From positions 3,103 through 67,102 of the IMG/VR virus record IMGVR_UViG_3300036761_001387: a DNA stretch of 64,000 nt, one strand, 5' to 3'. The notes beneath the pieces are model-generated. The model saw only the letters and a program-made list of their open reading frames with translations, did not search any database and was not told where the DNA came from. Made by a program: the position numbers and the translations under genes. The stretch is from a virus. This document shows, piece after piece, positions 723 to 42,086 of the stretch. Each line of letters opens with the position of its first letter. Position 1 is the first letter of the stretch.

Positions 723-1177
723 GTCCGCGCCCGATCTACGAGAACGCACAGAGCCTCAAGGACGAGCTGGAAATCGCCACTGCCGTTTGCAACCACCTCG
801 GCTGCACGGGCCTCAGGAAGCTCAACCCAATCTCCTACGGCATCGACTTCGCCATCCTCGTCGCGGGTCCGGAAGAGGATGGCGTCTGGTGCCTTCTCGA
901 GGCGAAAGCGCGCAATCGTTTCTACCATCAGTGGATCATCTCTGCCCTGAAGACGGAACGTGCGGCGGGCTTTGGCGCCTCCGGGCTCGCGGTCTATTTC
1001 GCTTGGGGTGCCCGGTCTGGCATCGACTGGGAGATCGATCTCTGGCAGTGGAACCCCAAAGTTCGCACCTTCATTCTCGCCGGCAGGGATGACCGGGGCG
1101 ACGAGGACGACAAGGAACCGTGCCTGCTCGTTCCCCGGAGCCTCTGTGATTCCTTTTCGTACAGGAGAACGTCTTGA
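719..1177 (+). CDS. PD-(D/E)XK-family nuclease-like protein
   Basis: YGIDFAIL...LLEAKARN gives a D...ExK motif; coupled start. Confidence 0.6.
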   Translation: MSPRPIYENAQSLKDELEIATAVCNHLGCTGLRKLNPISYGIDFAILVAGPEEDGVWCLLEAKARNRFYHQWIISALKTERAAGFGASGLAVYFAWGARSGIDWEIDLWQWNPKVRTFILAGRDDRGDEDDKEPCLLVPRSLCDSFSYRRTS

Positions 1178-1476
1178 GCGAACTTCCCGCCAACCCCGAG
1201 GCCGATCATCTCGGCTGGCTCATCGCCCGGATGTCCGCTGCTGCCCTCGGCCACATGAAGCCAGACGAGCCCTACCCCGGCAAGCCGCTCGCCCCCGTCG
1301 AGGAGATCCTGAGGCTCCGGTTCGCGGCCATGACGCTCGCCGAGGCCGTGGCGAAGCGGATCTACGGGGCGACCTTCACGCCGACCGACGTGGACACGAT
1401 CTTCACCGAGGCCCTGAACGAGGCGGCCGAGAAGCTGCCGATTGCCTACGCGAAACCGAAGGAGGACGGAGGCTGA
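1174..1476 (+). CDS. Hypothetical protein
   Basis: AGGAG RBS, TTGA coupling, GC3-rich codons. Confidence 0.65.
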   Translation: MSELPANPEADHLGWLIARMSAAALGHMKPDEPYPGKPLAPVEEILRLRFAAMTLAEAVAKRIYGATFTPTDVDTIFTEALNEAAEKLPIAYAKPKEDGG

Positions 1477-3007: not shown

Positions 3008-3483
3008 GCCCTCTGCTCGCGGAGCGCGTCGGCCCGCTCCATGATCGGGTCAACGTACTTCCCGAAGTTGTTCGGCGTCGGGCTTCCGGCGTTGTAGGCC
3101 GAGAGGGCGTCCCGTATGTTCGCGTATCGGCTGATCTTGAGGGCGAGGTGCTGCGCCCCGAGGTCGAGAGCGAGCGCCGGGTTCGCAGCGAGGTCCGCGA
3201 GGAACGCGCCCTTGAAGCCCCGCTCCCGGGCCACCGCTCCCATGATCTGGAGCAGCCCCCACGAGCACATCTGGAGGATCCGCTCCGTCTCGAGCGAGCA
3301 TGGCGCGACGGGCACGACGGCCGAGACGGACGGCCAGAGCCAGCGGTAGCCGGGCTCGTAGCGCACGGCCGACGGGTTCCCGCCGCTCTCCTGAATGACC
3401 TGCGAGACGAGGAGGAACTCGTCGATCCCGTAGCGGTTGGCCGCGTCGGTCACGAGGGCGGTGATGCCGAAGGGCAGCGTCAT
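3004..3483 (-). CDS. Lytic transglycosylase (SLT domain), probable endolysin
   Basis: IQESGG catalytic Glu, SWGLLQIM and ALSAYNAG motifs. Confidence 0.9.
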   Translation of the reverse strand: MTLPFGITALVTDAANRYGIDEFLLVSQVIQESGGNPSAVRYEPGYRWLWPSVSAVVPVAPCSLETERILQMCSWGLLQIMGAVARERGFKGAFLADLAANPALALDLGAQHLALKISRYANIRDALSAYNAGSPTPNNFGKYVDPIMERADALREQRA

Positions 3484-12400: not shown

Positions 12401-12404
12401 GCAC
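3480..12404 (-). CDS. 2974-aa polyvalent/ejection protein with RadC-like JAB domain and HhH-glycosylase-like domain
   Basis: HNHPTGDPTPSPAD JAB motif at 8964-9005; WY...ITSPQ...GRKTNNFY...TVDVHV...QVQAALW block at about 7680-8140; last gene of the ejection cluster. Confidence 0.8.
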   Translation of the reverse strand: MPESFAPPPGFDFADTNDPTSPEPEKKTFAPPPGFDFAEPEKPRAPKYAFEATVEGAMPTDEPVGEAMPPPPAPLATSPGIIEGRKAHAAATSLSAKALDQLFENPDPAAESTLDPKTQALLKQLRAKKALQDQIAPVTTEPLMAVSRGLVEQRDKRAELAKLQQEQEAENASRPGLLGTAIKSLPGAFGIASTQSAPLEVPAVPGKPLVARDEDLVRRFHEAGALAAPEREGIQTEGVTSIPTNLEKNVRGVGEIIGRRNEAYQQTITEPVASAAGHAVAGVLTTLGVPKDAATTIGRAAASPVEFITALGSPTNASLLLGLPIVAAAAPVAVPYVSAAITSYFGAEGAVGAAQGLTDLTKNWDALSPEERGVAISGILASAYMAFVPGLHEKGAKVHEANKHLYDQWRMRQQFEGRPPGEEPLDVETAAKPFAPPDGFEFAPEPVGIAANQRPDLADELPPGVDATGLGPAPPPRPVEAQGPTIPIGLNAERGAEGPLQFPPVPLAEFPMLKPELALELGPEPQGGPAGPREQWRYKGRVLETAQRIAGGEEVTPEALRQQYAMSRKNAEELLWDAKKKAMEIPSVRQEPTPAEAAPPNAAARPEARRPEEPQATTPPVQSTEAVAPPTVAEPRGRYDERVTRAMREAGWAEGEIEPRLEAEEQLFRQIDVHREEQAKAKADPNYHAVPFKVVATLPAEAGTTLVKEANDKFAKNQHLLSAPDKSGVREAELKTDHGLPYRLIVAEDPGGGRAIAVLNGSGRVHLVVADYDRSRYNGRLDPFTPTNRVQARMSERGVKRGPDEAYTPAGGQMVQDHLPRKAEVPVLEAMRGAENELAGTGDIRYLPGDSRAGEGLSAADVAKGLEDLRTATYHTSEGDAVLAAARKAKETHHGEWQETGGVLREGQPEAAGAYGRGPRSDVEGALVRAPVGPGGLPRVQGTPLAAAERGHPREIEGSARVEAPRDRKTLDLFGAEALPSSGRPGAAHPELAPAVRESVLLRAAVAARRGIEELRGRLDRRQSLKSDLRARTVGTRIADDLQEKGVVSLVGLKVRQGEGFIEDLATVGQVARDSRFETLRYLAIRDGEIVGEWAITSNLPTQVMAADVPLAEHHAEVVDWLRAHRAEGYAITHNHPTGDPTPSPADHRMTLVAYEAFRKAAPDLTFEGHVIINHKTYGILRLSEAGRDSDTLAARVEMLPLRVKQPVVLRALETDNRIGLGMRVADHHDLAKVAERLGSDPETITLVHASRDVDPQLSIVGRVRAVETIPVDLVLSASDRGAQYEKICDYIVQSMSDHGTHNVFLVHNGTEGKYDAYIRDLANFLRTEGAIRDAKINGRGIPEGLTVKSPDAGLRYGEKPAVMHVAEPEGGYGVGEKRDEDMWRGRPRELNGAPEHLKTLLDRRVWENKLAKEAKAAETRRFWYEKTSKHVLKIMQGDVEDAGILCRFMAITSPQESVPINWRRALQAFHQWKNGEPIHSSKQDRQDEAMQAAADAGANWEGRKTNNFYKNLMVEIDPHRIQGSTVDVHVMDKFGYKTGAPTERQYDFAEKTLERIAKKLGNDWRPHQVQAALWTHEKWTKNTKKWEAGGKVGPKPTIEEAGADFADLAPRESGRVTLEAVPPRSYLERTTPENKAQYTDEALQHVPLLDWARKLGLLPEKVEINAGAYEGESNPAPHVYLSMPAGPGGAPVEIEPSARALVERFAAMVGKALGQASVGYGCYFRLARDKQSGRILEPDKANAVYFPFEKKPTPEEAVAFLHEFEAAGLDGFVVPDEHGIGAITWAGQDREVLKSFRQRAVAAAERATGKMDVPFDERAHDGGLVEGGADGYESRLTGIPPELRADLDRSSDAVREVQARWEDRLAEAERASGAGPEAEAGPAALAAEPRAGYGEVGPEETPPEDVRDVGEWERERAAERAARPVETRPPAETPAPAREPIAPPEAAAAPREPEFGPAARRRIVAAPPVRMEGGVGPATKGEEMAQPPLGKRITAMVEGDPLKPKAKLNRLAELKDILGGYGLNQLEMASARAAELARRAASSLPKAIKMVSVAVPKIAEALKGTVKDAENFFTALAESRLRGIRDKYTDMIGYVDKLSPEELIEQAKTGLFDTAITAIDGKRGFEERDLPDELSTALYDAEGKSATRGTEAERKAQIAESVQGLRRFLKEVFSTARDNVGEAVLANDEKFEAYIARPEVKKALEIYKRLLEAPMRDAHELNEGFVSKHLGPMDAYFPLSQAPEMAPRDYRGERSPWIKPKNPGNNFATGLSDQYDTGVEALRNSLARSIRLNGRGGLIGELQTQGLLKPLAPGQSSTGTVKWGGQTFEAETVPIGIAMMISKDGKLIRVPQARAEVPKWLAKELSTILTGDPKVEEAQFQKILHFITAFQMGGPTDAVFHTANLVGTMVLRAPIVGTDIFSKAASANAMTKFVAGLANIMAVKPEAAEWSERYMEMVENGQIPNRAGTVTYSKRLAETTGAEKVSFLQTPWHRDRAGKGHARSPIDFSPIVFGPNGLDIRCRLLLDKIGEHIAEKSGIEMTPNERFQFTRMLGNYVFETEGRIERGAKSTGMAPFYTAGRQMNWNGIAGMLSAGHLPVGEGLAKQTFNRYRAMQVMSGLTGLVATWAVVNKLYRDKWPWEDDESRLFQIAIKPEHRQTALARAIYGDNLDRTAWVNLGFTSPLIARGLRVTGLRSQIENRMMKGMPGWKADEQSMLDTLNGWTHPFLGPPARMAAAFFGTEPYVQSLTSAGRSTPTLKSIVRGRVEKGWPGRSKIAEAMLVQSNPIFRRLETGKVEEHPATRVLADTMIPNLFGGPYSSQDTPLETILRENVPPTEAKTTEQLKQADITHGLTSRLRAAIKSSDTERAVTIREEIGAAVKEGKLPPHELKDIQKAATQVKNLGNFQRARMAAAVEAFEYATPAERKELYPAFVKKFRGTKWREEYKPDVVDDLTKRAMALIKQGPTKSAYAP
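6713..6913 (-). CDS. Putative nested gene (+1 frame) inside the polyvalent protein gene, 66 aa
   Basis: AAGGAGG just upstream of ATG 6913; GC3-rich codons in this frame while the host frame shows AGT/CGA/CTT/GGA/CCA. Confidence 0.55.
   Translation of the reverse strand: MGTRVDLPESHPSYGRIWIGPVMPFGKSKPAGKTDSPKPSEPAEPAPKRKLGQQPLPPSPVPGTEK
9518..9724 (-). CDS. Putative nested gene (+1 frame) inside the polyvalent protein gene, 68 aa
   Basis: GAAGGAG-N8-ATG 9724; MANGKKLAAFFARVNPKLPALM with genome-typical codons. Confidence 0.6.
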   Translation of the reverse strand: MANGKKLAAFFARVNPKLPALMAADHAAMLKEPSFEPPSGPVAYQGFKAPRSPQQNAAIHAKSKGPLG

Positions 12405-20728: not shown

Positions 20729-22081
20729 TTACTGATTCGGGGCGAAAAGCGAGACGGCCGGGTTCGCGCAACTGAGCGTACACCACTTGCCGCCGTCCTT
20801 AACCTTGAAAGTCTTCGACCCGATGGCGATGGCCGTATTGCCGCCGCCGTCGTAGCTATCGAAGACCGCGATGACGTTGTTGTCGATCGTGACCGAGCAC
20901 CAGTTGTTCTGCGTGTTGAGTTCGCCCACGACGATATGCGGCGGCACGATGCAGGTGTGGCACTGCGGGCAGGCGCCGTCCGCGCCGTCCTTGCCGTCCT
21001 TGCCGTTCGCCCCCGGCTGACCCGGAGGTCCGACTGGCCCGGGTAAGCCTATGCCGGCCGGGCCCTGCGCTCCGGTATCACCCTTTACGCCTGCGACTCC
21101 TTGCGGTCCCTGAATTCCAGCAGCTCCGGGGTCTCCTTTGTCACCTTTCGGACCCGCTTCTCCTTGAGGTCCAGCGGGACCAAGTAAACCACGATCACCC
21201 GCGTCGCCTTTATCTCCCTTTGGACCTGCCACCCCAGTTGCGCCAGTAGCGCCCGGATCTCCTTTCGGACCTTGGGCGCCCGGGTCTCCAGATACACCTT
21301 GAATTCCTTGGACTCCTTTTTCACCTTGGTCTCCTTTCTGGCCTTGGCGGCCCTGCTCACCTTGCGGCCCGATCTCCCCGCGCGCTCCGGCCGGTCCGGC
21401 CACGCCCGGCGTGTCGTCGGGGATGTAGTAGCCGAGGAGATCGACGAAGAGGTCGGTGTTCGCCGCGGCGTTGACGAGCGTGATCGAGTGCGCCTCGTCG
21501 AGCGCCACGTCGCCGGCCTGAACGTCGCCGAAGACCGTCTCGACCGGCGGAAGGTCGACGTGCCCGCCGTACTCGAGGAACAGCGGCAGGAAGCTGAAGT
21601 CTGCCGGGTAGAACACGGGGACGTACGCCGTCAGGAACGACAGCGCGCCCTTCGCGATGCCGTCGTTGATCGACCAGACCTGAACCTTGACGGCGATGGC
21701 GGCGTCGGGCACGGCCCAGCCGCAGGGGTTGGACTTCCCCTCGGGCAGGTGCGCCCGCACGTCGTAGGTCCGCGTCTCGCCCGCCTTCACGTCGTACGGC
21801 AGGCCGGTGATGGACCCGTACGGTGCGTCGAGGACGAACAGCGGGTACGTCGAGACGAGCCGGCAGGGTGTGATCTCGCGGAAGAGGACGCGATCGGCCG
21901 GGGCCGGTAGGCCGGTCTGGGACCGGACGAGGTGAGCCGCCGTCGTCAGGACGTCGGCGGTGTCTCCGACCACGGCCGGGGAGACGGGGATCGCGGGGTA
22001 GGTCGGGCTCGGCCCGATGTAGGTCTGCGCCGCCAGCGGAAGCGCCAGCGCGAGCAGGGCGAGGACGAAGAGTTTTTTCAT
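20729..22081 (-). CDS. Secreted collagen-like protein with a TPCRL...DLLGYY beta domain
   Basis: Signal peptide [19 protein letters not shown]; long (GXY)n tract. Confidence 0.85.
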
Positions 22082-22106
22082 AGGAACCTGCTTTCTTGTT
22101 GGTTGG

Positions 22107-22703
22107 TTATGTTTGATCGATTCCACGCATCCAGTTCTGGAGGCGTTCCAACTCGCCGGGGTCCACTTCCTCGCCGGCGTGAACGACTTCACCAAGTTCC
22201 TTCACCCAGTCCGGAGCGCTGGGCTCACTCCACGAGCGGACGTAGACGCGCTCGGGCGTGGGTGCCCGCATCCGGTAGAGCGCGGGATCCTCCTGCGGCT
22301 CGTCCGCCGGCAGATCGACGCCCTCCATCCACGCCCGGAGGTTCCGCGCCAGTTCGGGCCGCACCCGCTCGCCGCTCTCCGCCATGTCTGCCGCTGCCTG
22401 CACCCAGCCCGGGGCTCCGGGGTCGAAGGGGTCGCGGAGCACCAGCGGTTCCTCTCGGATGCCCAGCCTCCCCGCCTCGATCGCCGGCACCTCATCGAGA
22501 GGCAGCTCGATCTGCCTCGGGTTCTTCGCCCTGCGCTTGACCGCCTCCCAGTTCGTGGGCACCGCCCCGTTGATCTCGACGAACCAGCGCCCGCCCATCT
22601 TCACGCCCGGGAAGATGCCCAGCGCCACCCAGCGCCGGAGCGTGGACATCGGCACGTCGTAGCCGATCTGGTCTTTCGTCACCTTGGAAAGCGGAATCAT
22701 CAT
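22107..22703 (-). CDS. Excisionase-like HTH protein with duplicated C-terminal module
   Basis: [26 protein letters not shown]; TGATG coupling. Confidence 0.7.
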
Positions 22704-29998: not shown

Positions 29999-30392
29999 GG
30001 GACCATCCTCCCGGCGACGTACAGGATCTGCGCGAGCTGCTCGGGGCTCGGGACGCGCGGATAGACCCGCCGCCTCGGACCCGCCTTGCAGACCCGCCAG
30101 TGCGTGCCGTGCTTGCCGTGGGCCCGCGCCCGCGAGACGAACGCGACGAGAGCCCGCCCGTGCAGGACCGCGTCGCGCTCCTCGAGAGTGAGCCCGCAGA
30201 CGTACTGGTGCATCCCGCCACTGTGGTACGCAGTGGGGCTGATGACGATGTTCACTTTGGCCCTCCCTTCTCTGCGAGCGCCTTCTCCTGACGCGCGATC
30301 TTCTGGCGCCAGATCTCTTCGCGATCCCGCGCTCTCTTCCAGAGCCGCCACGTCCGCTTCAGGTCGGCCTCGGCCCGTGCGTGCAGCTTCCC

Positions 30393-30737
30393 TCAGATCA
30401 GATTGAGCGCGAGCAGCCAGCTCGGCGCCCCGTGTTGACAGATACCGTCCGGCTCGATCCTGCAGCCGTCAACGGCCTTCGCGACAGAGTCGAACGACCA
30501 GCGGTTCAGGGCCCGCTTCCCGGGCAGCCCGTACACCGTGAACGGCGCGGGGATCCTCGTCCAGCCCTTCGCCTCGCGCCCGGCGAGCCACTGCTCGGGC
30601 TCCAGCGGCTTCGTCGCGAACGCGTTGTAGTGGGCGCGCTCGCCCTCGCCCAGACCCGGCGACATCGCGAGAACGACGCGGTGAGCGGACGAGAAGAGCG
30701 CGATGCGCCCCCCCTTGGTGCAGGCGACGGTTGCCAT
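30393..30737 (-). CDS. Phage early protein with DGCxxEPDGxCxHGxPSW motif
   Basis: Metal-binding-like C-terminal motif; ATG 16 nt after ribozyme-like copy C. Confidence 0.75.
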   Translation of the reverse strand: MATVACTKGGRIALFSSAHRVVLAMSPGLGEGERAHYNAFATKPLEPEQWLAGREAKGWTRIPAPFTVYGLPGKRALNRWSFDSVAKAVDGCRIEPDGICQHGAPSWLLALNLI

Positions 30738-30753
30738 GGTGTACTCGCTTTCC

Positions 30754-30813
30754 GCCCGGAGTTGAGACCGGGCACTCGCTTTAACGGGCCCACGAGGCCC
30801 CGCGCTCTCTGCA
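30754..30813 (-). ncRNA. Twister-like ribozyme, copy C (degenerate)
   Basis: UGCA GA GAG CGCG GGGCC UCGUG GGCCC GU UAA AGC GAG U GCCCG G U CUC AA CUC CGGGC; A-A mismatch in P2. Confidence 0.6.
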
Positions 30814-31086
30814 TTACAGGGGGCCCTTGATTCCGACGGCCGTGCAGGCCGCGCGGAAGGCGAGACGGGATTCGGAGATGATGTAACGGCGGTTAGGCTC
30901 GTCAACAGGGTTAGCGCGGCGGATCGCGTCATCCTCCATGTAGCGGATCGCCCGCACGGCGGAGAGGCCGTGGGAGCGGGCGTCCTGTACGCAACGGCGG
31001 TTCACCCCGTATGGCAGCAAGAATGGGCGAAAGGATTCCCGCCTCGCCACCCGATGGAGTCTCTTGAGACTTTCGGCTTTGGTCAT
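30814..31086 (-). CDS. Hypothetical protein (MTKAESL...GIKGPL)
   Basis: GGGAG RBS, ATG 31086. Confidence 0.6.
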   Translation of the reverse strand: MTKAESLKRLHRVARRESFRPFLLPYGVNRRCVQDARSHGLSAVRAIRYMEDDAIRRANPVDEPNRRYIISESRLAFRAACTAVGIKGPL

Positions 31087-31212
31087 AACGCTCCCTCGAT
31101 TCCCACAGCGCGGAGAGCGCAGCGGAATGCGGCGGTCCCTTGCGTCCACTCTGTCGGAATGGGTTTCCTTCGCCCATTCTGAGAGCTTGCGGAGACTGTC
31201 GGCTTTGGTCAT
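31083..31212 (-). pseudogene. Internally deleted/frameshifted paralog of 30814..31086
   Basis: MTKADSLRKL in frame 0; AFRCALRAVGIEGAL-stop in +1 frame matches AFRAACTAVGIKGPL-stop. Confidence 0.55.
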
Positions 31213-31565
31213 GGCAGCTCCCTTCATGCGACGAGGAGGCCGTCGAGGATCGCGCCCTCGACGATCGCGCCGATGTACCGATGTTCGACCGGTTTCTTCG
31301 GTGCAGCCCTTCGGGCACGGATCCCAGACGCTGGGCGTGCCCGGCCCAGCCTCCTGCTTCTGCTTGGCCCGCTCCACGTTCAGGACGTGGCCGCTGTCCA
31401 TGCAGACCGGGCAGGTGTACCGCGATGACTTGCAGGCGATGCACTGGAAGCCCTCGGCCTTGATCCGGTGGCCGGTCTGCAGTACGCGGAAGTCTTCGCC
31501 GCACTTTTCGCACTTGACGATCTTCGCGAAGGTGCGCTGCTGGGGGCGCTCGGGATTCTCGTCGC

Positions 31566-32015
31566 TCACAGCCGCACCATCTTCAGCGTGATCGACTGCC
31601 ACGCGTAGCAGACGATGATGCCGCCCGTGGCGAGCTTGTAGCCGGGGGCTCCGAGGGCGTAGGAGTATTCCCCATCCTTCATGGTCAGGGTGGCCGAGCC
31701 TTGGGGCAGCGCCACGCGCACGCTGGCGCTCGTATGGACTTCCCGCAGATCAAGCCCCGCGTTCGGGACTCGCGTCCCGGTGGCCGAGTCCTCCACGTAG
31801 AACGTCATCAGCCTCTCGGACTTCGCGTCCGGGGCGCCGACGGTTGGCGTGGGCGTGGGCGTGGGCGTCAGCCACGGCAGCGTGGGCTGGGGGGCTGGCG
31901 TCGCCGTGCGGACGGGGAAGGGCGTGGGTGTCGGGTAGACGGGCGCGACGGGGTCGTTCGCCTTGCCGCATCCGCAGAGGATCAGGGCGAGGACGAGGGG
32001 TGCGGAGTGGTTCAT
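31566..32015 (-). CDS. Lipoprotein with PT linker and beta-sandwich domain
   Basis: LILCGC lipobox, PTPTPTPT, FYVEDSATGTRVPNA...APGY. Confidence 0.75.
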   Translation of the reverse strand: MNHSAPLVLALILCGCGKANDPVAPVYPTPTPFPVRTATPAPQPTLPWLTPTPTPTPTVGAPDAKSERLMTFYVEDSATGTRVPNAGLDLREVHTSASVRVALPQGSATLTMKDGEYSYALGAPGYKLATGGIIVCYAWQSITLKMVRL

Positions 32016-32359
32016 GCTTCCCTCCATTCTTCCAGTGGGACGACGCGTCCCGGTTTGAAGATGATGGCTTCCTGCGTGAAGTAGTCGAACTCGTGCCAGC
32101 TCTGGGGGCCGGCCTTGTCGAGGGCGTCGCGCAGCTTGCGGCCCGATGCGTCGGTCAGCATGATGCGGCGCGCCGGTTCGGACTGCGCCTGCCACGAGGG
32201 CTTTCCCGTGCGCGTCCCGTCGGCGTTGTGCGCCGGCGTCGTCCACGACTTGCCCGGGTCGCAGAGGTCGGCGCTATCCCAGACGAGGATGCCACCGCGC
32301 TCCTCCAGCCATTGCGAAATGAGTGGCGCGTTCTCTTCGGAGATTCGGTGTTTCTTCAC
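32012..32359 (-). CDS. Hypothetical early protein
   Basis: GGAGG RBS, GTGA coupling. Confidence 0.7.
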   Translation of the reverse strand: MKKHRISEENAPLISQWLEERGGILVWDSADLCDPGKSWTTPAHNADGTRTGKPSWQAQSEPARRIMLTDASGRKLRDALDKAGPQSWHEFDYFTQEAIIFKPGRVVPLEEWREA

Positions 32360-32601
32360 GGCTGCACCTCCTCGTCGTCCGGATACCGCAGGATGTCGCC
32401 CGTACGCGACAGGAAGCCGTCGAGGATCAACGCTCGCGCCGCGCGCCCGTAGCTGCCCTGCAGCGTCCACGCCATGCCGTTCTTCACGAGCAGCGAGAAC
32501 AGGCGGACCGTCTGCGGCCCGTCCAGTTCGCCCTGTTCGTACGCGATGATCTCGTCGGTCAGATCGATCGACCCGTGGCCGTACTTCGCGCGTTCTTCCA
32601 T
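32356..32601 (-). CDS. Small phage early protein (AYEQGEL...AWTLQGSYGR family)
   Basis: Motif recognised from phage early genes; ATG 15 nt after ribozyme-like copy B. Confidence 0.75.
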   Translation of the reverse strand: MEERAKYGHGSIDLTDEIIAYEQGELDGPQTVRLFSLLVKNGMAWTLQGSYGRAARALILDGFLSRTGDILRYPDDEEVQP

Positions 32602-32616
32602 GGTGACCTTCTTTCC

Positions 32617-32677
32617 GCCCCGTGCTTGAGATTCGGGGCTGCGGGTTTAACGCGGGCCGAAGCCCGCGCCTCTCACC
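32617..32677 (-). ncRNA. Twister-like ribozyme, copy B
   Basis: GGU GA GAG GCGCGGGC UUCG GCCCGCGU UAA ACC CGC A GCCCCG AA U CUC AA GCA CGGGGC. Confidence 0.75.
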
Positions 32678-33098
32678 TCTTGCTCTTGCTCGCGCGCTTC
32701 TTCCACGCGGCGACCACGATCTGAAATTGCCCGGCCTCCACGACGCTCCAGCCCACGCCCGGGTTCACCGACGCGAGGTCGACGAACTCCGCGAAGGTGA
32801 GAGCGCCCTCGCCCTCCTCGCCGAATCCGGACGCATCGACGAAGACGTACGACGGGTCGCAGAGCAGGCCGTCCAGCCTGTACTGCGAGACCTTGCGGCT
32901 CGGGTAGAGGTGCTTCCTCGGGATCAGCGACCAGCCCACGGGCTTGTAGTCGCCGAGAAACGGGATCTGGCGCAGCGTCTCGTCCGCCGTGCCGTTGAGA
33001 AAGTCCTCGCGCTCCACGGCGACGGGCTGCTTCTTGGCGCGCGCCGCCTTCACGGTCGCCTGCCGGCTGAGTTCGTTGATCTGGCTGAGTGACATCAT
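32673..33098 (-). CDS. Hypothetical early protein
   Basis: AGGAG RBS; FVDASGFG...GALT...IVV pattern. Confidence 0.7.
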   Translation of the reverse strand: MMSLSQINELSRQATVKAARAKKQPVAVEREDFLNGTADETLRQIPFLGDYKPVGWSLIPRKHLYPSRKVSQYRLDGLLCDPSYVFVDASGFGEEGEGALTFAEFVDLASVNPGVGWSVVEAGQFQIVVAAWKKRASKSKR

Positions 33099-33340
33099 GG
33101 CGTGCTCCTCTTCATTTCCTCGGTTACTTCGTCGCAAATGGCAAGGTCCGCGTCCGCCCATCCGGGGATCTCAACCGAGAGCCGCGCAAAGAGCGCCGAC
33201 TGGACGCGCACAACGTCGCCGAGGGTCGTTGCTCCTATGTGGGCCACGGCCTCGCGGTAGGGTGCGCTCCCGTCCATCCGCGAGAGGGTGGTGTAGAGGG
33301 TACTGGCGGTGGGGAGGGTGAGAGTCGTGATGTCGTACAT
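33095..33340 (-). CDS. Hypothetical early protein
   Basis: AAGGAG RBS before ATG 33340. Confidence 0.65.
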   Translation of the reverse strand: MYDITTLTLPTASTLYTTLSRMDGSAPYREAVAHIGATTLGDVVRVQSALFARLSVEIPGWADADLAICDEVTEEMKRSTP

Positions 33341-33357
33341 GCTGTACTCCTTTAGTC

Positions 33358-33585
33358 CTACGAGGACGCGACCCATTGCCGGGCCTGCTCGGTGAGAGGG
33401 TGGAGCAGGTAAATCGTGCCGCCACCCGTGACCTCGAAATCGGCTCCCGGCGCCACGATGACGGGCTTGACCTTCCGCGCCTTCGGGCGCGACTTGGCGT
33501 ATCCGAGACTCACGTCGGGACTGCAGCCGCGATGCGCCAGCTCCGGGTGTTCGTTGAGAGCGATGAGCGTTCTGAGATCATGCAT
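33358..33585 (-). CDS. First gene of the early operon, hypothetical
   Basis: AGGAGG RBS. Confidence 0.7.
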   Translation of the reverse strand: MHDLRTLIALNEHPELAHRGCSPDVSLGYAKSRPKARKVKPVIVAPGADFEVTGGGTIYLLHPLTEQARQWVASS

Positions 33586-33637
33586 GGTGTCCTCCTATTT
33601 CGTTTTGGAGCGTTCGAAGGCCGCGCGTTACCGGAGT

Positions 33638-33706
33638 GCCGGGGGCTTGAGACCCGGCCGCCGCATTAACAGGGCGCCGGATCTCTCCGCCGCCCCGCCC
33701 CTCTGC
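33638..33706 (-). ncRNA. Twister-like ribozyme, copy A
   Basis: GCA GA GGG GCGGGGCG G CGGA GAGA UCCG G CGCCCUGU UAA UGC GGC G GCCGGG U CUC AA GCC CCCGGC. Confidence 0.8.
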
Positions 33707-33789
33707 TGAACCGCCCTTCCTTGGGTCGGCTGGGGTGCTGGTTGTCAAAGAGCCCCGGTGCGGGGGCCACCTTCATCGTGGCAAGTGCA

Positions 33790-33818
33790 AAGGTAGTCCT
33801 TCGTCGGACCCCTGTCAA
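33790..33818 (-). promoter_or_regulatory. sigma70 early promoter TTGACA-N17-TACCTT
   Basis: Consensus -35 with 17-bp spacer, upstream of the early operon. Confidence 0.8.
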
Positions 33819-34686
33819 GGGGCGAAAGCGAGATACCGTACGAATGATGCATCTGCATGGGGCCGTCGAGCTAAGCGTCTGCAGCCCTCAAGAGCGCGCC
33901 CAGACCTATAGCGTTGAGGCACCTTCTGTCAGATTTACGAAGAATCAGTAACTTGGGTCTGAATTGTGTAGATAAATCGACAGTCTGAGGTGCGGAAAGA
34001 TCGACACATCGACGTCCGCAAAAACGCCCTTTGACCCCAGAATCGACCCTGAAACCGGCTCGGCGGGCGCGCGGTTTTCAACAGCCGTCAAGGTGTCGTC
34101 AGCCGGCTCCGCTCGGCCCGGGGCGGGCTCGTCGAGGGGCTCGGCTTGCACCTCACGGGTACATACCGGACGCGTAATTTCGCCTGTGGAATCGCCAGAT
34201 GGTGATGGTCTGTCAAGTCGCCCGAGGCGTAAGTGCCGGAGCCTTTAGAATCAACGGCTTCCGCGCTGCGTTAGCACGGTTCGGGCATGGCGCTGCGGCC
34301 GATACCGTGTATTATGTCAAAGCTTTTTCGTCGATTGGCGGGGCTTTCGGGCCGCTTTCGTCCGACGCGTGCGTACTCGGACGCTGGGCGCAAGTCGCCC
34401 TGCGGGTGTCGGGTCGCCTCGATCGGGGGTGCTGCCGGCGCGCCACGCGGCGAGCGCTTCGAGGCCGGGCAGCCCGGGCGCCGCCTCGTGGACGGACCGC
34501 GCGCCCTCGTCCCGGGCAGGACCCCCCGGGGGGAGGGGGTATGCCCTCGGGATCCGGGTCCCATCTTTCCGGGTCCCATCCGGCCCTCTCGCCACGCTAA
34601 ACCCCAAAGGACGGGTATATACCATTGTCCTCGCAAAGTCTATGCAGAAGAGCACGTTACGGTGGGTGAAGCAGAACCAACCGGTT

Positions 34687-35034
34687 TCATCGTGGTCGTG
34701 GGGGACGGGCTGGGGGTCGTCCGCGGGGCGAATCACGGCGGTCCGGCCCTACCCACGGCTTTCGGGAGATCCGGTGCTCTGAGGGGGGGGTTTCTGGGGG
34801 GTCTACGGGCAAGGCGGCCCCTTCTGGCTTCGAGCGGTAGGGCATCAGCGGGTACAGCGGGCAGACCGGGACGCGGCAGTCGACCTTGCCGTCTGCGTAG
34901 CCGCCGCAGCACTCGGCGCATTTTGCGACGATGGCTTGGCGCTGTGTGAGGCGTTTCCCGGCGAGGTAGCGCGAGTAGAAGTTCTTGCCCTGAGAGAGTT
35001 TCCAGTCTTTCGTGCGGTCGAGGATTTTGATCAT
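34687..35034 (-). CDS. Zinc-binding protein (AIxAKCxECCGG...CPLYP family)
   Basis: Cys motif; ATGA coupling to the replication gene. Confidence 0.75.
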   Translation of the reverse strand: MIKILDRTKDWKLSQGKNFYSRYLAGKRLTQRQAIVAKCAECCGGYADGKVDCRVPVCPLYPLMPYRSKPEGAALPVDPPETPPSEHRISRKPWVGPDRRDSPRGRPPARPPRPR

Positions 35035-36374
35035 TCCGGGGGTCCTTCGGTGGCCTGCTGGGCGGCAGCGAGTTCATCGCGGAGGAGGCCGAGTCTGAGG
35101 GAGACGCGGGCTTTTATGGCGGTATTCCCTTCATTTTCAGCATCTTGGAGCACGCCTTCGAGCTTTTCGATGAGGAGTTCGATCTGGCGCGGGGCAGAGG
35201 CGGCGGAGGAGGCGGGTTCTGCGCTGGGAGGCTCTGTGGGGCCCGAACTCGGTTCGTGGGGCCCGGGGGCGTCTTCGGGGTCGATCGTGGCTCCTGAGGG
35301 CGCCGGGGCCTCGGGGAGGGTGATTCCGGAGGCTTTCCGCATCTCGGCGTAGACCTCCTCGTTGAGGGCTTGGTTTTTGGGGTCGGCGCCCTTGTCGGTT
35401 CGGTCTGGGCGGGCTCCGTCTTCGGCGTACCACTGCTTTCCGCCCCTGACTGGGGAGAAGAACTTGCCATCGAACTTGCAGTTACCACTCTCCTGAAAGA
35501 ACTTAACCAGATGTTTCCTTGGGGGTTTTCTCTCAGTCGGGAGCTGGATCTTCGGAGCCGGCGTGGTCGAGGTTCGTTCAAAGGCGCCGTCGTTCTTGCG
35601 CCAAGTCACCATGGCGGCTCGCCACGAGGTCATCAGGACGCCGCCCTTGAGCTTCCAGCCGCGGGTCTCGTGGTGGGCGTGGAAGTGCTCGGCGTCGAAT
35701 CCGAACCAGCCGAGGCCTTGGGCGTGAGCCGCGACCTCGTCGATCGTGGGGGGTGTGAACCTCGAAGACCCCCTCGGCTTTTTTTCTGGCGCCCCAACCT
35801 CAGTCGAGAGTTCCACAGGTAACACTACGGGAGAACCTAACTCAACTGAAACCATACCACACTTATGTTTTTTGCTTACATTTTGATTAACATTGCTTTC
35901 GACGCTTACATCTGGCTTACTGGGTAAGGGCTCTGGATTACTCGTGCTTACCTCTGGCTTACTTCCTATAACTCCTTGTTCCTGAGCGGCTTTAACCTTG
36001 GCCCTGTACCTTGCGACTGCCTCGGCGGTCTGCTTTCGACGGTCTTCGGCCCTGAACTGTTTCGAGTAGACGTCCCAGTTCACGATCTCCCAGCCCCTCT
36101 CGGGCTGGTCTGGACGGAGGAGGATGAGCCGGCGACCCATGGCACGGTCTGACCGCGAGAAGGGGTCCGGTTCGAGTAGGACTTTCAGCGCCTCCCGGGT
36201 CTCGTCCTCGGTCATCCCGGCCTGTCGGGCGAGGATGAACAGGGGGACGTCGACCTGTCCGGATCTGGCCTTGTCTGCCATCGAGAGCATGGTGATGAAG
36301 AGCCACCGGACCGGCACGCTCGACGCCATGAGGGACGAGTCCCAGAGATCGTGGAACAGACGCAAGTACATCAT
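35031..36374 (-). CDS. Phage replication initiator (lambda O-like organisation)
   Basis: N-terminal HTH-like region, central iteron stretch, FTPPT...RGW...SWRAAMVTW domain. Confidence 0.75.
   Translation of the reverse strand: MMYLRLFHDLWDSSLMASSVPVRWLFITMLSMADKARSGQVDVPLFILARQAGMTEDETREALKVLLEPDPFSRSDRAMGRRLILLRPDQPERGWEIVNWDVYSKQFRAEDRRKQTAEAVARYRAKVKAAQEQGVIGSKPEVSTSNPEPLPSKPDVSVESNVNQNVSKKHKCGMVSVELGSPVVLPVELSTEVGAPEKKPRGSSRFTPPTIDEVAAHAQGLGWFGFDAEHFHAHHETRGWKLKGGVLMTSWRAAMVTWRKNDGAFERTSTTPAPKIQLPTERKPPRKHLVKFFQESGNCKFDGKFFSPVRGGKQWYAEDGARPDRTDKGADPKNQALNEEVYAEMRKASGITLPEAPAPSGATIDPEDAPGPHEPSSGPTEPPSAEPASSAASAPRQIELLIEKLEGVLQDAENEGNTAIKARVSLRLGLLRDELAAAQQATEGPPE
35820..35975. repeat. Putative replication origin: iterons plus AT-rich tract
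   Basis: TCTGG(C/A)TTACT at 35911, 35932 and 35953 (21-bp period) beside AT-rich 35820-35900. Confidence 0.75.
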
Positions 36375-37171
36375 TCTCCTCCTCTTATCGGCCGTATGTA
36401 GTCCGAAAATTGGCTGCAGCCGTCCCAGAACTCCTCCCAGTCGCGAACGTGGCCCGAGAGCCAGACCAGCGTCTCAACCGGGAGGCCCCCCTCGACGTAC
36501 TTCGTCAGCTCATCCACGAAGTTCACGCCGAACCCGAGCACCCTCTTCGGATCGCCGAAGCGGCGGCGCATGGTCGCCGCGGCGTAGAAGACCTGCTTCA
36601 GCCACGGCTTCTCCCGGACCTGAGGGACCCGGACGGCGTACCGCGGGACCATCCTCCAAAACAGGTCGAAGTCCTTGTCGATGTGGGCGGTTGCGGCCTC
36701 GTCGATGGCTTCGAGTAGGTCCGGGAGCGGGTACTTTCGGACCCACCTTCGGATGTCGCCGCGGCCGATATCGTTGATGCTCTGGCCGGGGATCCACCGG
36801 TTGATGGCCTCGACGACCGCCTCCTCCTCGTCCCGCTTCGCATCGGCCAGCCCCCGGGCCCACTCAGCCATCATCCGGACCTGCTCGCGCTTCGTCGCCC
36901 GGATCTCGATCTCGTTCCGCCGACGCGCGATGGCCGACTCGTCCGAGAGGAGGATGTCGGCCTTCCCGAGGTTGCAACCTGCACACGCGGTGAGCAGATT
37001 CAGGGGGTCGTTCCTGCCAGCTTTCGACCGGGGGGTGATGTGGTCGACGTGGAGGACGACGTCCGGAACCCCCTTCCCGCAGTACTGGCACCTGAACTTG
37101 TCCCTCTTGAAGACCTCGAACTTGGTGCGCTTCGAGACCCGTTTCGGTCCAGCCTCGGCGAGTTCGGCCAT
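36371..37171 (-). CDS. HNH endonuclease domain protein
   Basis: RDKFRCQYCG...LHVDHITP...NLLTACAGCNLGK. Confidence 0.9.
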   Translation of the reverse strand: MAELAEAGPKRVSKRTKFEVFKRDKFRCQYCGKGVPDVVLHVDHITPRSKAGRNDPLNLLTACAGCNLGKADILLSDESAIARRRNEIEIRATKREQVRMMAEWARGLADAKRDEEEAVVEAINRWIPGQSINDIGRGDIRRWVRKYPLPDLLEAIDEAATAHIDKDFDLFWRMVPRYAVRVPQVREKPWLKQVFYAAATMRRRFGDPKRVLGFGVNFVDELTKYVEGGLPVETLVWLSGHVRDWEEFWDGCSQFSDYIRPIRGGE

Positions 37172-37224
37172 GTCTGGGCCCGCCTTTCTTGCTTATCGCG
37201 TCTTACGGTAAGCTACGCCCCCCC

Positions 37225-37253
37225 AAGGTAGTCCCCTCCCTCCCCCCGCGCAA
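37225..37253 (-). promoter_or_regulatory. sigma70-type promoter TTGCGC-N17-TACCTT for the HNH-replication operon
   Basis: Same GGACTACCTT -10 context as the promoter at 33790. Confidence 0.6.
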
Positions 37254-37341
37254 GGTGAAAATTTTACTCTTCTGGGTAGAAGGGCTTACGAGAATTCTTG
37301 ACTTGCGTTCGGAGGTGTGCTTGGGCTACGAATTCGCGCCA

Positions 37342-37809
37342 GTGAGCGAAGCGAGCGTTCCGCCCGAGTCCAGAGACGCCGCGAAGCCGCGGACGAAACG
37401 AGGCCCGCGGGGAGGGAACTCGGTCCAACGCGCGCTCGCGAAGGTAGCAACTCCGACCGTACTTGCAAATCCCGATCAGGAACTCGCGTGGGAGAAGGAC
37501 TTTCTCGGGGCGATGCGAACCGACCCGATCCCGAAGAAGGCTGCGGAGATCGCCGGGATCAACATGAGCCTCGTCTTTCGCTGGCGCAGGGAGAGCGAAC
37601 GGTTCGAGGAGTTGTACCAGAGGTCGAAGGAGGAGGGCGTCGAGAACACTCTCGAGGCCGTCGCGTTCGAGCGTGCGAAGGAGAAGAGCGATCTGCTCAT
37701 GCTCGGTGCGCTGAACGCGTATATGCCCCAGCGTTACAAGCGAGACAACGCGAAGACGACGAGGTTCGCGGGAAACGGAATCGTTCTGGAGATCAGTGAC
37801 GCGAAGTGA
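37342..37809 (+). CDS. terS: Terminase small subunit (start uncertain)
   Basis: HTH AAEIAGINMSLVFRWRR...LEAVAFERA...SDLLML...PQRY; first gene of the late operon. Confidence 0.75.
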   Translation: MSEASVPPESRDAAKPRTKRGPRGGNSVQRALAKVATPTVLANPDQELAWEKDFLGAMRTDPIPKKAAEIAGINMSLVFRWRRESERFEELYQRSKEEGVENTLEAVAFERAKEKSDLLMLGALNAYMPQRYKRDNAKTTRFAGNGIVLEISDAK

Positions 37810-39048: not shown

Positions 39049-39351
39049 ATGAAAATCACGCTCAATACGATCCTCCTCGACGTCTACGGCAAGGAAATCT
39101 CCGATCCCGCCGACAAGATCCCGCTCACGGTCGGCAAGGCGGCGGTCGCCGCGCTCTGCGCCGGCGGCCCGGACGAGAAGATCACGGGGGCGGAGAAGTT
39201 CAAGCGCTGGCAGCTCGCCCAGAAGATCGCCGGCGTCCTCGAGGCCGAACTCACGGTGGAAGAGGTCGCACTCATCAAGAAGGTCTCGGGCGAGGTCTGG
39301 GGGATCGTCGTGGTCGGACCGCTCTGGCTGGCCTTGGAGACCACGAACTGA
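39049..39351 (+). CDS. Hypothetical protein, fibre-associated chaperone-like
   Basis: EKFKRWQLAQKI...LTVEEVALIK pattern seen next to fibre genes. Confidence 0.55.
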   Translation: MKITLNTILLDVYGKEISDPADKIPLTVGKAAVAALCAGGPDEKITGAEKFKRWQLAQKIAGVLEAELTVEEVALIKKVSGEVWGIVVVGPLWLALETTN

Positions 39352-42086
39352 TGGGCCAGAAAGTCGGGAAGCCCGGGGACCTGCGGATCAGCGTCCAGTT
39401 CTGGCCGAAGCAGCGCCAGTTCTGGGAGCTGATCGACCGCTCGGAGAATCTCTGGATCGCCTACGGCGGGGCGAAAGGCGGCGGCAAGGCTAACCCATGT
39501 GACTGCAACGTTTACACGCCATCTGGTCCGGCGAAAATGGGCGATCTGAACACGGGGGATCTCGTCTCTTGCCCGGATGGTTCGACGGCGAAAGTGCTGG
39601 CGATCTGGCCCCACCCGAAGACGGACGTTTACCGCGTCACGTTCGATGACGGTGCGTCGGTCGAGGCCACGCTGAATCACCTCTGGAAGGTCCGCGGCGC
39701 GGGCACGCGGCGCTACGACGGCAAGAACGACCACTCGCGCAAGCCGGGCGATCACCAGTGGTCCGTCATCGATACGGCGACGCTGAAGAAGACCATCGAT
39801 TCCGGCAAGCGCGTCTACATCCCGTTGACCAAGCCGGTCGAATTTGAGCGCTCGGCGAATCTCCCGCTCGCGCCCTACGTTCTCGGTGCGCTATTGGGCG
39901 ACGGGAGCCTACAGGCGCTCGTTGCGAAGGAGCGGGTCGATCTCGTGAAGGTGGCCGGTGGCGAGACCGAGGGGCGGTACCGCGGCACCTACGCCTACGA
40001 CCGCGTCCGCATGACGTCGGCCGATCCGGAGATCGTCGCGCGCTGCGCCGAGCTGGGGGCGACGCCGTGGTCGGATCTTCCCAAGAAGAACAACCTCGCC
40101 CGCGAATACGGATTTGATCAAGTTGTCGCCGGCTCAATCCGGGATCTCGGCCTCGCCGGGAAGAAGGCTTGGGAGAAGTTCGTCCCGAAGCAGTACCTGA
40201 TCGCGCCCATCGCCGATCGGGAGGAACTGCTTCGCGGTCTGATGGACACCGACGGATCGGCCGACAAGAGGGGCCACGCGTACTTCGGCACCTCCTCTCG
40301 CCAGCTCGCCGAGGACGTCCAGTGGCTGGCCCGTTCGCTCGGCTACAAGGCGAACCTGACGTCTTTCACCCCAACGTACTTCTGGAAGAAGGAGAAGCGT
40401 TCGGGCCGACTGGCCTTTAGGGTCTGGATCAAGGGCCAGAACCACGAGAACCTCTTCTCGTTGCCGCGGAAGAAAGAGCGGGCGACCCTCCCGTACGGCG
40501 GCCGGAAAGAGAACGGCGCGAACGAGGCTGCGCGGGGCCGTCGCGTTATGGCCGTCGAGTTCTCGCGCAACACCGACTGTCGCTGCATCACGATCGGGCA
40601 TCCCGATGGCCTCTACGTCGCCGACGACTTCGTCGTGACGCACAACTCGGTTGCGCTCCGCGGCATCCTCCTGTCGCTCCTCGTGAAGTACAGGGGGATG
40701 ACCGCGCTCCTCCTGCGGAAGACGTACGAGGAGGTCTACAACAACCACGTCCTGAAGTTCTGGACGGAGTACCCCGAACTCGAGCAGTACTACGCCAAGA
40801 ACGAGAAGATCCTGCACCTCCCCAACGGCTCGAAGCTCTTCATCGGCTCGGGCGACAAGGAAGGCGACGTCCGGCGGTACAACGGGATGGCCGACTTCGC
40901 TCTCATCGGTGTCGATCAGGCCGAGGAGTTCAGCGAGGAAGATCTGGGGACTCTCGCGTCGTGCGTCCGGTCGACGATCCGGGGCTTCACGCCAAAAGTC
41001 GCTCTGACCTTCAACCCGGGAGGGCAAGGTCACGCGCACCTCAAACGGGTCTTCCTCGACCGCGAGTTCCTCACACACGAGAGTCCCGAGGACTATGCCC
41101 CGCTCCTGCGCGCGTTCGGCTGGGACAACTACGAGTGGGTGCGGCCAGAGGCCGAGGCCGAGAAGGTCGACTCGAAGGTCTATTTCGGTTGGCCCGAGGA
41201 GGAGCGGAAGAAGTTCTTCCTCACCACCAAGTACGGGCGGCAGCTCCTCGGCCTTGCCCCCGACCTGCAGTCAAAGTACCTCTGGGGGTCGTTTGACCTC
41301 TTCGAGGGCCAGTTCTTCCACAAGTTCGACGTCAACCGCGTCGGCTACCTGCCGCACGAGGTGCAGCCCGAGTCGTACTGGCCGCGGTGGATCTCGATCG
41401 ACGGCGGCTACGACCACCCGTCGGCCGTCTACTGGCACACGACGCCGGACGGGAAGCGCGTCTTCACGCTCAACGAGTTCGTGCAGTCGCGCCTCGAGCC
41501 GTCCGAACTGGGCCATGCCATCGCGAAGCTGACGCTCTTCGACGCGATGGGCAAGCCGCTCGACCCGAAGCCCGAGATCACCGACGTCATCCTGTCGCAC
41601 GACTGGTTCCGCGCCGACCACACCGTCAAGACGCGCGCCGACATCCTCGGCGACGTGCTCCAGAGCTACGGCCTGCCCTTCCCGAAGAACGGCGGGCGCG
41701 ACCGGAAGGGGCGCTACCGGCTGATGAGCCAGATGATGAGCAGCATCGGCCCCGACGGCTTTCCGGACTGGCGGATCGACCGCGTCCGCTGCCCGAAGCT
41801 GATCCGGACGATCCCGCTCTGCATCCGCGACCCGAAGGACGACGACGACGTGCTGAAGTTCGTCGGCGACGACCCGATCGACGGGGCCGGGCAGGGCATC
41901 CAGCAGATCTACATGGAGCCCTACATCCCGAAGGACGTCCGGCTGCAGCGCCGGATGGAGCCGTTCAAGGACGCCGACCCGCACACGCGGGCGATGATGG
42001 CCCGAATCGCGGCGGCCGACGACAAGAAGAACGACTTGGCGTTCGTTTCTCTCAGACGAGCCTACAGAAACGGAGGAGTGAGCTGA
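39351..42086 (+). CDS. terL: Terminase large subunit containing an intein
   Basis: Walker A GGAKGGGK|S, Walker B IGVDQAEE, TFNPGG, nuclease SIDGGYDHP...DDPIDG. Confidence 0.93.
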   Translation: MGQKVGKPGDLRISVQFWPKQRQFWELIDRSENLWIAYGGAKGGGKANPCDCNVYTPSGPAKMGDLNTGDLVSCPDGSTAKVLAIWPHPKTDVYRVTFDDGASVEATLNHLWKVRGAGTRRYDGKNDHSRKPGDHQWSVIDTATLKKTIDSGKRVYIPLTKPVEFERSANLPLAPYVLGALLGDGSLQALVAKERVDLVKVAGGETEGRYRGTYAYDRVRMTSADPEIVARCAELGATPWSDLPKKNNLAREYGFDQVVAGSIRDLGLAGKKAWEKFVPKQYLIAPIADREELLRGLMDTDGSADKRGHAYFGTSSRQLAEDVQWLARSLGYKANLTSFTPTYFWKKEKRSGRLAFRVWIKGQNHENLFSLPRKKERATLPYGGRKENGANEAARGRRVMAVEFSRNTDCRCITIGHPDGLYVADDFVVTHNSVALRGILLSLLVKYRGMTALLLRKTYEEVYNNHVLKFWTEYPELEQYYAKNEKILHLPNGSKLFIGSGDKEGDVRRYNGMADFALIGVDQAEEFSEEDLGTLASCVRSTIRGFTPKVALTFNPGGQGHAHLKRVFLDREFLTHESPEDYAPLLRAFGWDNYEWVRPEAEAEKVDSKVYFGWPEEERKKFFLTTKYGRQLLGLAPDLQSKYLWGSFDLFEGQFFHKFDVNRVGYLPHEVQPESYWPRWISIDGGYDHPSAVYWHTTPDGKRVFTLNEFVQSRLEPSELGHAIAKLTLFDAMGKPLDPKPEITDVILSHDWFRADHTVKTRADILGDVLQSYGLPFPKNGGRDRKGRYRLMSQMMSSIGPDGFPDWRIDRVRCPKLIRTIPLCIRDPKDDDDVLKFVGDDPIDGAGQGIQQIYMEPYIPKDVRLQRRMEPFKDADPHTRAMMARIAAADDKKNDLAFVSLRRAYRNGGVS
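39489..40646 (+). mobile_element. Class 3 intein (386 aa) with LAGLIDADG homing endonuclease
   Basis: Starts with Ala, ends VVTHN|S; WCT triplet (NHLW, CRCI, VTHN); LGALLGDGS and LRGLMDTDGS. Confidence 0.92.

Follow-up and report, generated by a model that had tools for sequence, protein, structure and literature searches.

The parent virus record is a linear sequence of 67.1 kb with an estimated completeness of 52%, of which a stretch of 64 kb with a G+C content of about 65%, referred to below as the window, was analysed. Structural genes occupy the plus strand from about 39 kb and include a portal gene and a large terminase gene (39351–42086), in which LAGLIDADG and Hom_end homing-endonuclease domains are placed ahead of the Terminase_3 domain and which is probably intein-containing. 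The minus strand below about 37 kb carries early and DNA-metabolism genes, including those of an HNH endonuclease, a replication-initiator-like protein, and a RecT-like protein. The HNH endonuclease, RecT-like protein, terminase, and portal, along with a DUF7417 protein, define a phage gene context for the three ribozymes described below. The minus strand also contains a single 2974-aa ORF at 3480–12404 (GC3 0.85) and, at 20729–22195, a gene for a 488-aa protein with collagen triple-helix repeats (PF01391, 2.7e-22), which is likely to be a tail fibre or a comparable protein. In a blastn search of positions 30000–37500 against deposited phages, only the DUF7417 gene found matches, at 71–73% identity, in Streptomyces phages.

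Between positions 33586 and 34286, 700 nt with no convincing ORF separate a minus-strand operon, of which ribozyme A is the first element, from the plus-strand ORF 34287–34949, for which no family match was obtained. This interval is AT-richer, contains TTGACA motifs, and may be a divergent regulatory region. The first gene after ribozyme A (33358..33585, minus strand, 75 aa) is followed by ORF 33376..33095 and then by ORF 33098..32673, whose ATG shares bases with the stop codon of the preceding ORF (ATGA). The latter ORF is strongly coding (GC3 0.93), and its 141-aa product had no Pfam or PHROG match and no relative among viral contigs. Farther downstream on the same strand lie the gene of the 81-aa DUF7417 protein (32356..32601; PF24192, 1.6e-23; phrog_3908, 1.9e-23), a 262-aa ORF (30814..31602; GC3 0.75 overall, higher at both ends), and a gene starting with an ATG at 30737 (30393..30737; in-frame GC3 0.9–1.0). 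Relatives of the DUF7417 protein are encoded in seven other viral loci, none of which has an adjacent twister; the ribozymes thus show no fixed association with these genes, and no locus syntenic with that of B was found. Another viral contig (L010) carries a weak, sub-threshold match to a hammerhead ribozyme (HH9; 1153–1224, plus strand; 26.3 bits, E 0.015) with an intact core, CUGAUGAG...GAAAC; a DUF7417 homologue of this contig lies about 1.8 kb downstream of it.

An Rfam cmscan revealed three matches to Twister-P5 (RF02684, gathering cut-off 37.6 bits) in the window, all on the minus strand. Copy A (33640..33707) scored 45.4 bits, with an E-value of 3e-6 over the whole window, and is the only reason that any Rfam family stands above threshold there, Twister-P5 being the sole one. 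Copies B (32619..32678; 30.7 bits, E 0.0068) and C (30756..30813; 24.8 bits, E 0.22) are sub-threshold matches from a permissive Rfam scan of 20–45 kb, on the same strand as A. A filter-free exhaustive search of the 64-kb window with our own model returned no further match above 12.5 bits; A, B, and C were included in building this model, and their own scores in it are true by construction, so that only the absence of extra matches is informative. The entire virus record contains three twisters in all.

Twisters, a class reportedly described by Roth et al. in 2014, cleave UAA directly after its U. In all three copies the strand order from 5′ to 3′ is P2′ (4 nt), L1, the P1 hairpin, U|AA, P2, the T2 dinucleotide, a short joiner, and P4; the chain enters at P2′ and leaves after P4, and the RF02684 matches and the anatomy of all three copies agree in this with the type-P5 topology assigned in an earlier sequence-only reading of this DNA. 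L1 consists of G, A, and three T1 nucleotides, and the P4 loop is UCUCAA followed by GC or CU. P1, P2, P4, the UAA cleavage site, and both pseudoknots are kept in A, B, and C, as is the conserved core: U-A-A at the cleavage site, G-A after P2′, and U, C, and A-A in the P4 loop. T1, formed by L1 with the P4 loop, is a 3-bp pseudoknot, and T2 has 2 bp in every copy, as in the canonical fold; the 3-bp T2 of the sequence-only reading was an error, the pseudoknot of that length being T1. Pseudoknot pairs are not scored by the Rfam model, and their presence therefore supports the sub-threshold copies B and C independently. The fold z-scores of the three copies are unremarkable (−1.8, −1.1, and −0.5). 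All three are on the coding strand, each in a gap that separates ORFs of the same orientation, and a Shine-Dalgarno sequence and an ATG follow 17–54 nt downstream. Sequence and structure identify A as a member of the twister family; B and C display the structural features listed here, and the placement of the copies relative to the genes can be read directly.

Copy A, with a predicted cleavage site between U33668 and A33667, is situated in a 5′ leader about 54–55 nt upstream of the ATG at 33585, within a non-coding stretch of about 380 nt, and has no upstream ORF. Its P1 comprises 8 bp plus a 4-bp extension (a 14-nt extension), its P2 (AGCA/UGCG) has an outer A-G mismatch, T1 is GGG:CUC with one G-U pair, T2 is GC:GC, and one C is inserted after T2. 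The minimum-energy fold of A is 1.1 kcal/mol more stable than its twister fold. A candidate promoter, TTGACA-17 nt-TACCTT (33790..33818, minus strand), may be read by eye about 80 nt upstream of A; a consensus promoter scan did not report 33790..33818, the −10 element of which matches at only three of six positions.

In copy B, P2′ occupies 32678–32675, followed by G5 (32674), A6 (32673), the T1 strand (32672–32670), and P1 (32669–32650), a 9-bp GC-rich hairpin with a UUCG loop. Cleavage is predicted at U32649|A32648. P2 (32646–32643; AGGU/ACCC) consists of three pairs and an outer A-C mismatch, T2 pairs 32642–32641 with 32625–32624, and P4 pairs 32637–32634 with 32622–32619; the sequence gives GAG:CUC for T1 and GC:GC for T2. 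Energy minimisation of the 60 nt of B yields exactly the nested P2/P1/P4 twister fold. ORF 33098..32673 ends in ...AAG AGG TGA, and this TGA (32675–32673) is located inside the ribozyme, where it supplies U4 (the last base of P2′, paired with A33), the candidate catalytic nucleotide G5, and the conserved A6, exactly as had been proposed from the sequence alone. By the numbering in Table 1 and the structure passages of the review PMC5408937, the G directly after P2′ would be the conserved guanine proposed as the general base; on this numbering, G5 would correspond to the catalytic guanine (G45 or G48 of the crystal structures) and A6 to the A of the A-A contact. The ATG of the DUF7417 gene lies 17 nt past P4 of B and is preceded by the Shine-Dalgarno sequence GGAAAGAAGG.

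Copy C has its predicted cleavage site between U30783 and A30782. As noticed earlier, its P2 (UGCA/AGCG) contains an A-A mismatch next to the cleavage site, and this helix is weak, with two Watson-Crick pairs and one U-G pair. The twister fold is 4.2 kcal/mol less stable than a competing fold in which GCA of P2′ pairs with UGC of the joiner. T1 is GAG:CUC. T2 is AG:CU, both strands being changed with two Watson-Crick pairs kept; T2 of C, as far as its sequence goes, is rescued by covariation, which the sequence-only reading had overlooked. The UAA that this reading had placed against P2′ is the stop codon of ORF 31602..30814 (TAA, 30816–30814) and directly precedes position 1 of the ribozyme at 30813. 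The next ATG, at 30737, is 18 nt past P4, and both this ATG and that following B carry Shine-Dalgarno sequences of the GGAAAG type.

A T2 of the AG:CU type was also found in two twisters of the viral contig G001, one of which is above the Rfam cut-off at 38.5 bits. The scan for T2 variants like that of C yielded 51 stretches, with real twisters at one locus only; one of 55 matches passed a strict filter, and a second copy in the same locus was confirmed by Rfam. Contig G001 (of locus L131) contains four twister-like matches in total. Two further, diverged elements (11757–11812 and 12053–12107; 38.7 and 28.1 bits) have L1 GAUGG, the P4 loop UCCAAAGG, and apparently T1 UGG:CCA and T2 CC:GG, with a UGA at the P2′/L1 junction in each.

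The copies were compared in an alignment of 50 sequences comprising the three window copies, two from G001, and 45 twisters of the Rfam-qualified set, which numbers 49 and comes from 15 other viral loci; the four left out are two duplicates from L065 and two copies with a very long P1. Positions assigned to P1, P2, P4, T1, and T2 are 92.5% paired in this alignment, and the covariation score is 0.542 versus 0.131 in shuffles, none of the 500 shuffles reaching 0.542, with covariation of at most 0.131 in controls with slid partners. The window copies carry all eight invariant columns. The T1 helix is 99.3% paired, and its middle pair takes five pair types: G-C in 21 sequences, U-A in 20, C-G in four, A-U in three (two of them being B and C), and G-U in one, copy A. 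T1 variants also include GCA:UGC (L019e, L030b). The first pair of T2 is, besides G-C, A-U in three sequences (C and the two G001 copies) and C-G in two; natural covariants of T2 as a whole are GG:CC (L032c), CC:GG (L043d), CG:CG (L043a), AC:GU (L115e), and AG:CU (C and G001).

The alignment also reveals a peculiarity of B that the sequence-only reading had missed. An insertion of the form AA...A lies at the top of P4, between the near-invariant G-C pair and the loop, so that B is the one exception among 50 sequences in lacking the otherwise invariant G-C pair at this alignment position; the pair, which closes P4 under the loop, is present in A and C. Pattern searches for such an insertion elsewhere gave 0 of 2 viral-contig and 0 of 110 metagenome-contig matches that passed the P1/P2/P4 pairing filter, with a narrow pattern in which GAGAG and TCTC were fixed and the insertion was exactly 2+1 nt. 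Since no second example of the insertion turned up in these scans, B is, on its sequence, the copy whose activity is the most uncertain. The P4 insertion is a bigger threat to activity than anything found in C.

It is conceivable that only A is active and that B, C, or both are decayed and catalytically dead, surviving as nothing more than intergenic hairpins (P1 and P4) or simply not purged so far. Both copies are below the Rfam cut-off, the insertion in B displaces a near-invariant pair and was met nowhere else in the viral and metagenome pattern scans, and C combines a mismatch next to the active site with a more stable competing fold. However, no invariant nucleotide of the 50-sequence alignment is missing from B or C, the five pseudoknot pairs are intact in both, and T2 of C is preserved by changes on both strands, with AG:CU recurring in two G001 twisters, one at 38.5 bits. 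Such preservation is not expected from random decay, and a loss of activity in B, C, or both is improbable; the compensated T2 of C argues for selection, with its weak P2 as a liability.

The sequence-only reading had further noted that the copies lack a closing P5 stem, and this holds: the flanks form only three contiguous pairs at the junction in A, one in B, and four in C (two of the latter being G-U), and the duplex energies of the 30-nt flanks of A, B, and C are no better than those of shuffles, with no P5 helix. An extended fold of B, in which GGUGA would pair with UCACC before the ATG, was considered as a candidate P5 and rejected, being no better than shuffles and absent from C and G001. 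The lack of P5 had been taken to mark these copies as a minimal open permutation, but the Rfam model contains none either, and other phage type-P5 twisters usually lack it. The structure line of the curated type-P5 consensus in Rfam has zero P5 pairs, and a passage of PMC5408937 lists P5 as optional.

For a wider sample, viral contigs were scanned with a type-P5 core pattern that fixes the canonical T2 and the loop nucleotides, which gave at least 119 stretches; matches with at least three P2 pairs and at least four P1 pairs were kept, amounting, among the matches listed, to 106 candidates and 89 distinct sequences, 87 of them with enough flank. Four or more contiguous flank pairs occur in 10 of these 87 phage type-P5 twisters versus 2 of 87 with swapped flanks, and the flank duplexes average −8.99 kcal/mol, those of the swapped flanks −8.78 kcal/mol (p = 0.34, n = 99), both comparisons being among the matches listed. 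A P5 from more distal flanks, the configuration that the sequence-only reading had named as speaking against it, was likewise rejected, the flank duplex energies being no better than shuffles in the window copies and equal to the swapped control among the matches listed. Because the Rfam model has no P5 pairs, the flanks in the window resemble shuffles, and those of the wider sample resemble the swapped control, the absence of P5 is, judging from these sequences, the usual state of phage type-P5 twisters and not an adaptation of this locus.

The position of the upstream stop codon was surveyed in 101 non-redundant phage contexts among the matches listed from the core-pattern scan, taking the longest ORF of at least 60 codons that ends between −150 and +12 of the ribozyme start, a naive rule under which related phages were counted separately. 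Among the matches listed, the stop overlaps the ribozyme in 19 of the 101 contexts, abuts it in 24, and is 1–2 nt away in 16, 3–12 nt away in 15, 13–27 nt away in 8, and farther than 27 nt in 6, with no upstream ORF found in the remaining 13. Overlap or a distance of at most 2 nt was thus seen in 59 of 101 contexts among the matches listed, versus 5.5% at random positions. Among the matches listed, 14 of the 19 overlapping stops are a UGA within GAG-UGA of L1/T1 and five are uAG across position 1, and a downstream start lies at a median of 27 nt past P4 in 85 of the 101 contexts.

An independent, Rfam-defined set of 49 matches above the cut-off from 15 viral loci, in which two rows from L065 duplicate L014, has the stop at −5 or closer in 31 of 49 rows. 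On contig G001, two twisters with P2′ GGGU follow ORFs of 205 and 162 open codons and contain a UGA at U4-G5-A6, as in B. The arrangement in B is accordingly recurrent rather than accidental, which is no demonstration of gating, and stop codons touching the 5′ strand appear, from these sequences, to be a general property of phage type-P5 twisters, not special to this locus. In the papers covered by a full-text search, no description of stop codons overlapping twisters and no statistics on P5-less type-P5 twisters were found.

Arrays of four to six Rfam-qualified type-P5 twisters per locus were found in six of the 15 viral loci. Twister arrays with spacings of a few hundred nt occur at L019, L043, L115, L072, L023, L032, L058/L077, L128, and L088, and a pistol ribozyme (L128, 5527–5607) and an HDV-like ribozyme (L088, 11533–11601) were seen beside twisters. 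A further regularity concerns the sequence after P4: among the matches listed, 32 of 101 phage twisters carry, within the 45 nt past P4, a perfect complement of at least 5 nt to the 5′ end of the 3′ cleavage product (AA + P2 + G). Shuffles would give about 11 versus these 32, and about 2 versus 15 for at least 6 nt (among the matches listed; set L011–L129). The complement covaries with P2, UGCG occurring with CCGCAUU, UGUA with CUACAU, and UGUG with CACAUU, which suggests, at the sequence level, that the downstream RNA would have a 5′-terminal stem once cleaved, or that an off-state exists. It is absent from A and B, and C is outside this set.

Taken together, it is likely that A, B, and C are cis-acting type-P5 twisters that serve the intercistronic self-cleavage of a polycistronic phage early transcript, made from a minus-strand operon of small genes adjacent to those of the HNH endonuclease and the RecT-like protein; cleavage, the stabilisation of the fragments, and the promoter upstream of A are what we infer from their sequence and placement. 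Each ribozyme would fold from one continuous strand, with the P4 loop supplying the partners of T1 and T2, and the polycistronic RNA would be split at 33668|33667, 32649|32648, and 30783|30782. The upstream product would retain a complete ORF with its stop codon and end in the GC-rich P1 hairpin with a 2′,3′-cyclic phosphate. The downstream product would start with 5′-OH-AA and continue through the P2 strand into the P4 hairpin; 17–54 nt farther on come the ribosome-binding site and ATG of the next gene. In bacterial mRNA decay, 3′ hairpins block 3′ exonucleases, and 5′-hydroxyl ends are poor substrates for the 5′-end-dependent RNase E and RNase J; with hairpins at the 3′ ends and hydroxyls at the 5′ ends, both products would therefore be relatively protected. 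The operon would be divided into the leader, a 1019-nt segment with three small genes, a 1866-nt segment from the DUF7417 gene to the 262-aa ORF, and the remainder, and the likely outcome is independent stability and translation of these segments. Section 13 of PMC6765202 records a proposal that bacterial twisters and hammerheads, which are located close to phage genes, process polycistronic transcripts, and the reading given here agrees with it. Since arrays of four to six twisters exist in six of 15 other viral loci, the locus is a typical example of a common phage design.

A rival reading, the core of which had been put forward in the sequence-only reading, holds that cleavage is gated by translation; the terminating ribosome would cover the catalytic G and the T1 strand and thereby time cleavage or the release of the downstream fragment. 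A ribosome footprint extends about 12 nt downstream of the A-site codon, so that P2′, the catalytic G, the T1 strand, and part (about half) of P1 would be hidden under a ribosome at the UGA of B, and P2′ and L1 under one at the UAA of C. With the P2′/L1 strand covered, the twister fold would be impossible as long as the ribosome sits there. The geometry of a stop in or at the ribozyme is real in B and C, the two G001 twisters have UGA at U4-G5-A6 exactly as B does, and a stop overlapping the ribozyme or within 2 nt of it recurs in 59 of the 101 phage contexts among the matches listed versus 5.5% at random. However, compact phage intergenic spacing explains the proximity of the stop equally well without any function, and a transient block could do no more than postpone cutting, a reaction that is irreversible and, in twisters, fast. 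Moreover, copy A has no upstream ORF at all, and 42 of the 101 contexts (among the matches listed) have either a stop more than 2 nt away or no identified ORF. Gating at this locus is unlikely in our judgement; the ribosome could delay the reaction, and could equally strip off the cleaved 3′ fragment or have no effect that matters.

We are similarly doubtful of the general form of this proposal, in which phage type-P5 twisters would be built so that the upstream cistron ends on the 5′ strand of the ribozyme, either abutting P2′ or using core nucleotides (uAG at P2′, UGA at U4-G5-A6, or UGA in the T1 strand), and every terminating ribosome would unfold P2 and T1. If true, gating would couple mRNA segmentation to the translation of the preceding gene and offer a first mechanistic handle on the purpose of twisters in bacteria and phages. 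B is a convenient natural test case, because its stop codon and the catalytic guanine share nucleotides.

A chance origin of the matches, for which the weak E-values of B and C taken alone (0.0068 and 0.22) could speak, is extremely improbable and, on the sequence evidence, effectively refuted, since A exceeds a curated cut-off with an E-value of 3e-6 over the whole window, the three matches share one strand, each is intergenic and has pseudoknot complementarity that the model does not score, and the next best match in the 64-kb window reaches only 12.5 bits. Circularisation of a segment between two twisters, through a hybrid ribozyme reassembled from its two ends, was also considered and discarded for this window, the P2 strands of A, B, and C being mutually incompatible (AGCA/UGCG, AGGU/ACCC, and UGCA/AGCG).

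The survey is the more useful result: phage type-P5 twisters usually lack P5, occur in arrays, and, among the matches listed, follow an architecture in which the upstream stop codon borders on the catalytic strand or reaches into it and the ribosome-binding site of the next gene follows at no more than about 27 nt. This regular architecture makes intercistronic processing, possibly coupled to translation, a directly testable hypothesis. Two of the three new copies are natural variants that probe the limits of the fold, C by its swapped T2 and B by its enlarged P4 loop.

Compared with known systems, the locus adds three members to a known ribozyme class, reviewed in PMC5408937, in its usual phage setting, B and C being minor variants. 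The copies share with type-P5 twisters (RF02684) the strand order P2′, L1, P1 hairpin, UAA, P2, GC, and P4, the conserved nucleotides, a T1 of three pairs plus the A-A contact, a T2 of two pairs, and, as in the Rfam model, the lack of P5. They differ in the AA...A insertion at the top of P4 in B, in T2 AG:CU and the P2 A-A mismatch in C, in the 14-nt P1 extension and the extra C after T2 in A, and in the scores of B and C, which are below the gathering score.

According to section 13 of PMC6765202, clusters of hammerhead, twister, pistol, and hatchet ribozymes near phage-like bacterial genes were the basis of the ribozyme discoveries of 2015, and the role of twisters in bacteria and phages is still called elusive in that source. 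As in these bacterial clusters, several ribozymes are found here within a few kb, on the coding strand, beside small hypothetical phage genes, and the proposed role is the processing of polycistronic RNA. All three ribozymes here are of one class, whereas the other viral contigs examined also contain a pistol (L128) and an HDV-like ribozyme (L088) beside their twisters.

Phage T7 has RNase III processing sites between its early genes. As at those sites, intercistronic cuts by the ribozymes would leave a 3′ hairpin on the upstream message and free the downstream cistron; unlike the T7 system, no host enzyme would be involved, and the ends would be a 2′,3′-cyclic phosphate and a 5′-OH in place of the 3′-OH and 5′-phosphate of T7.
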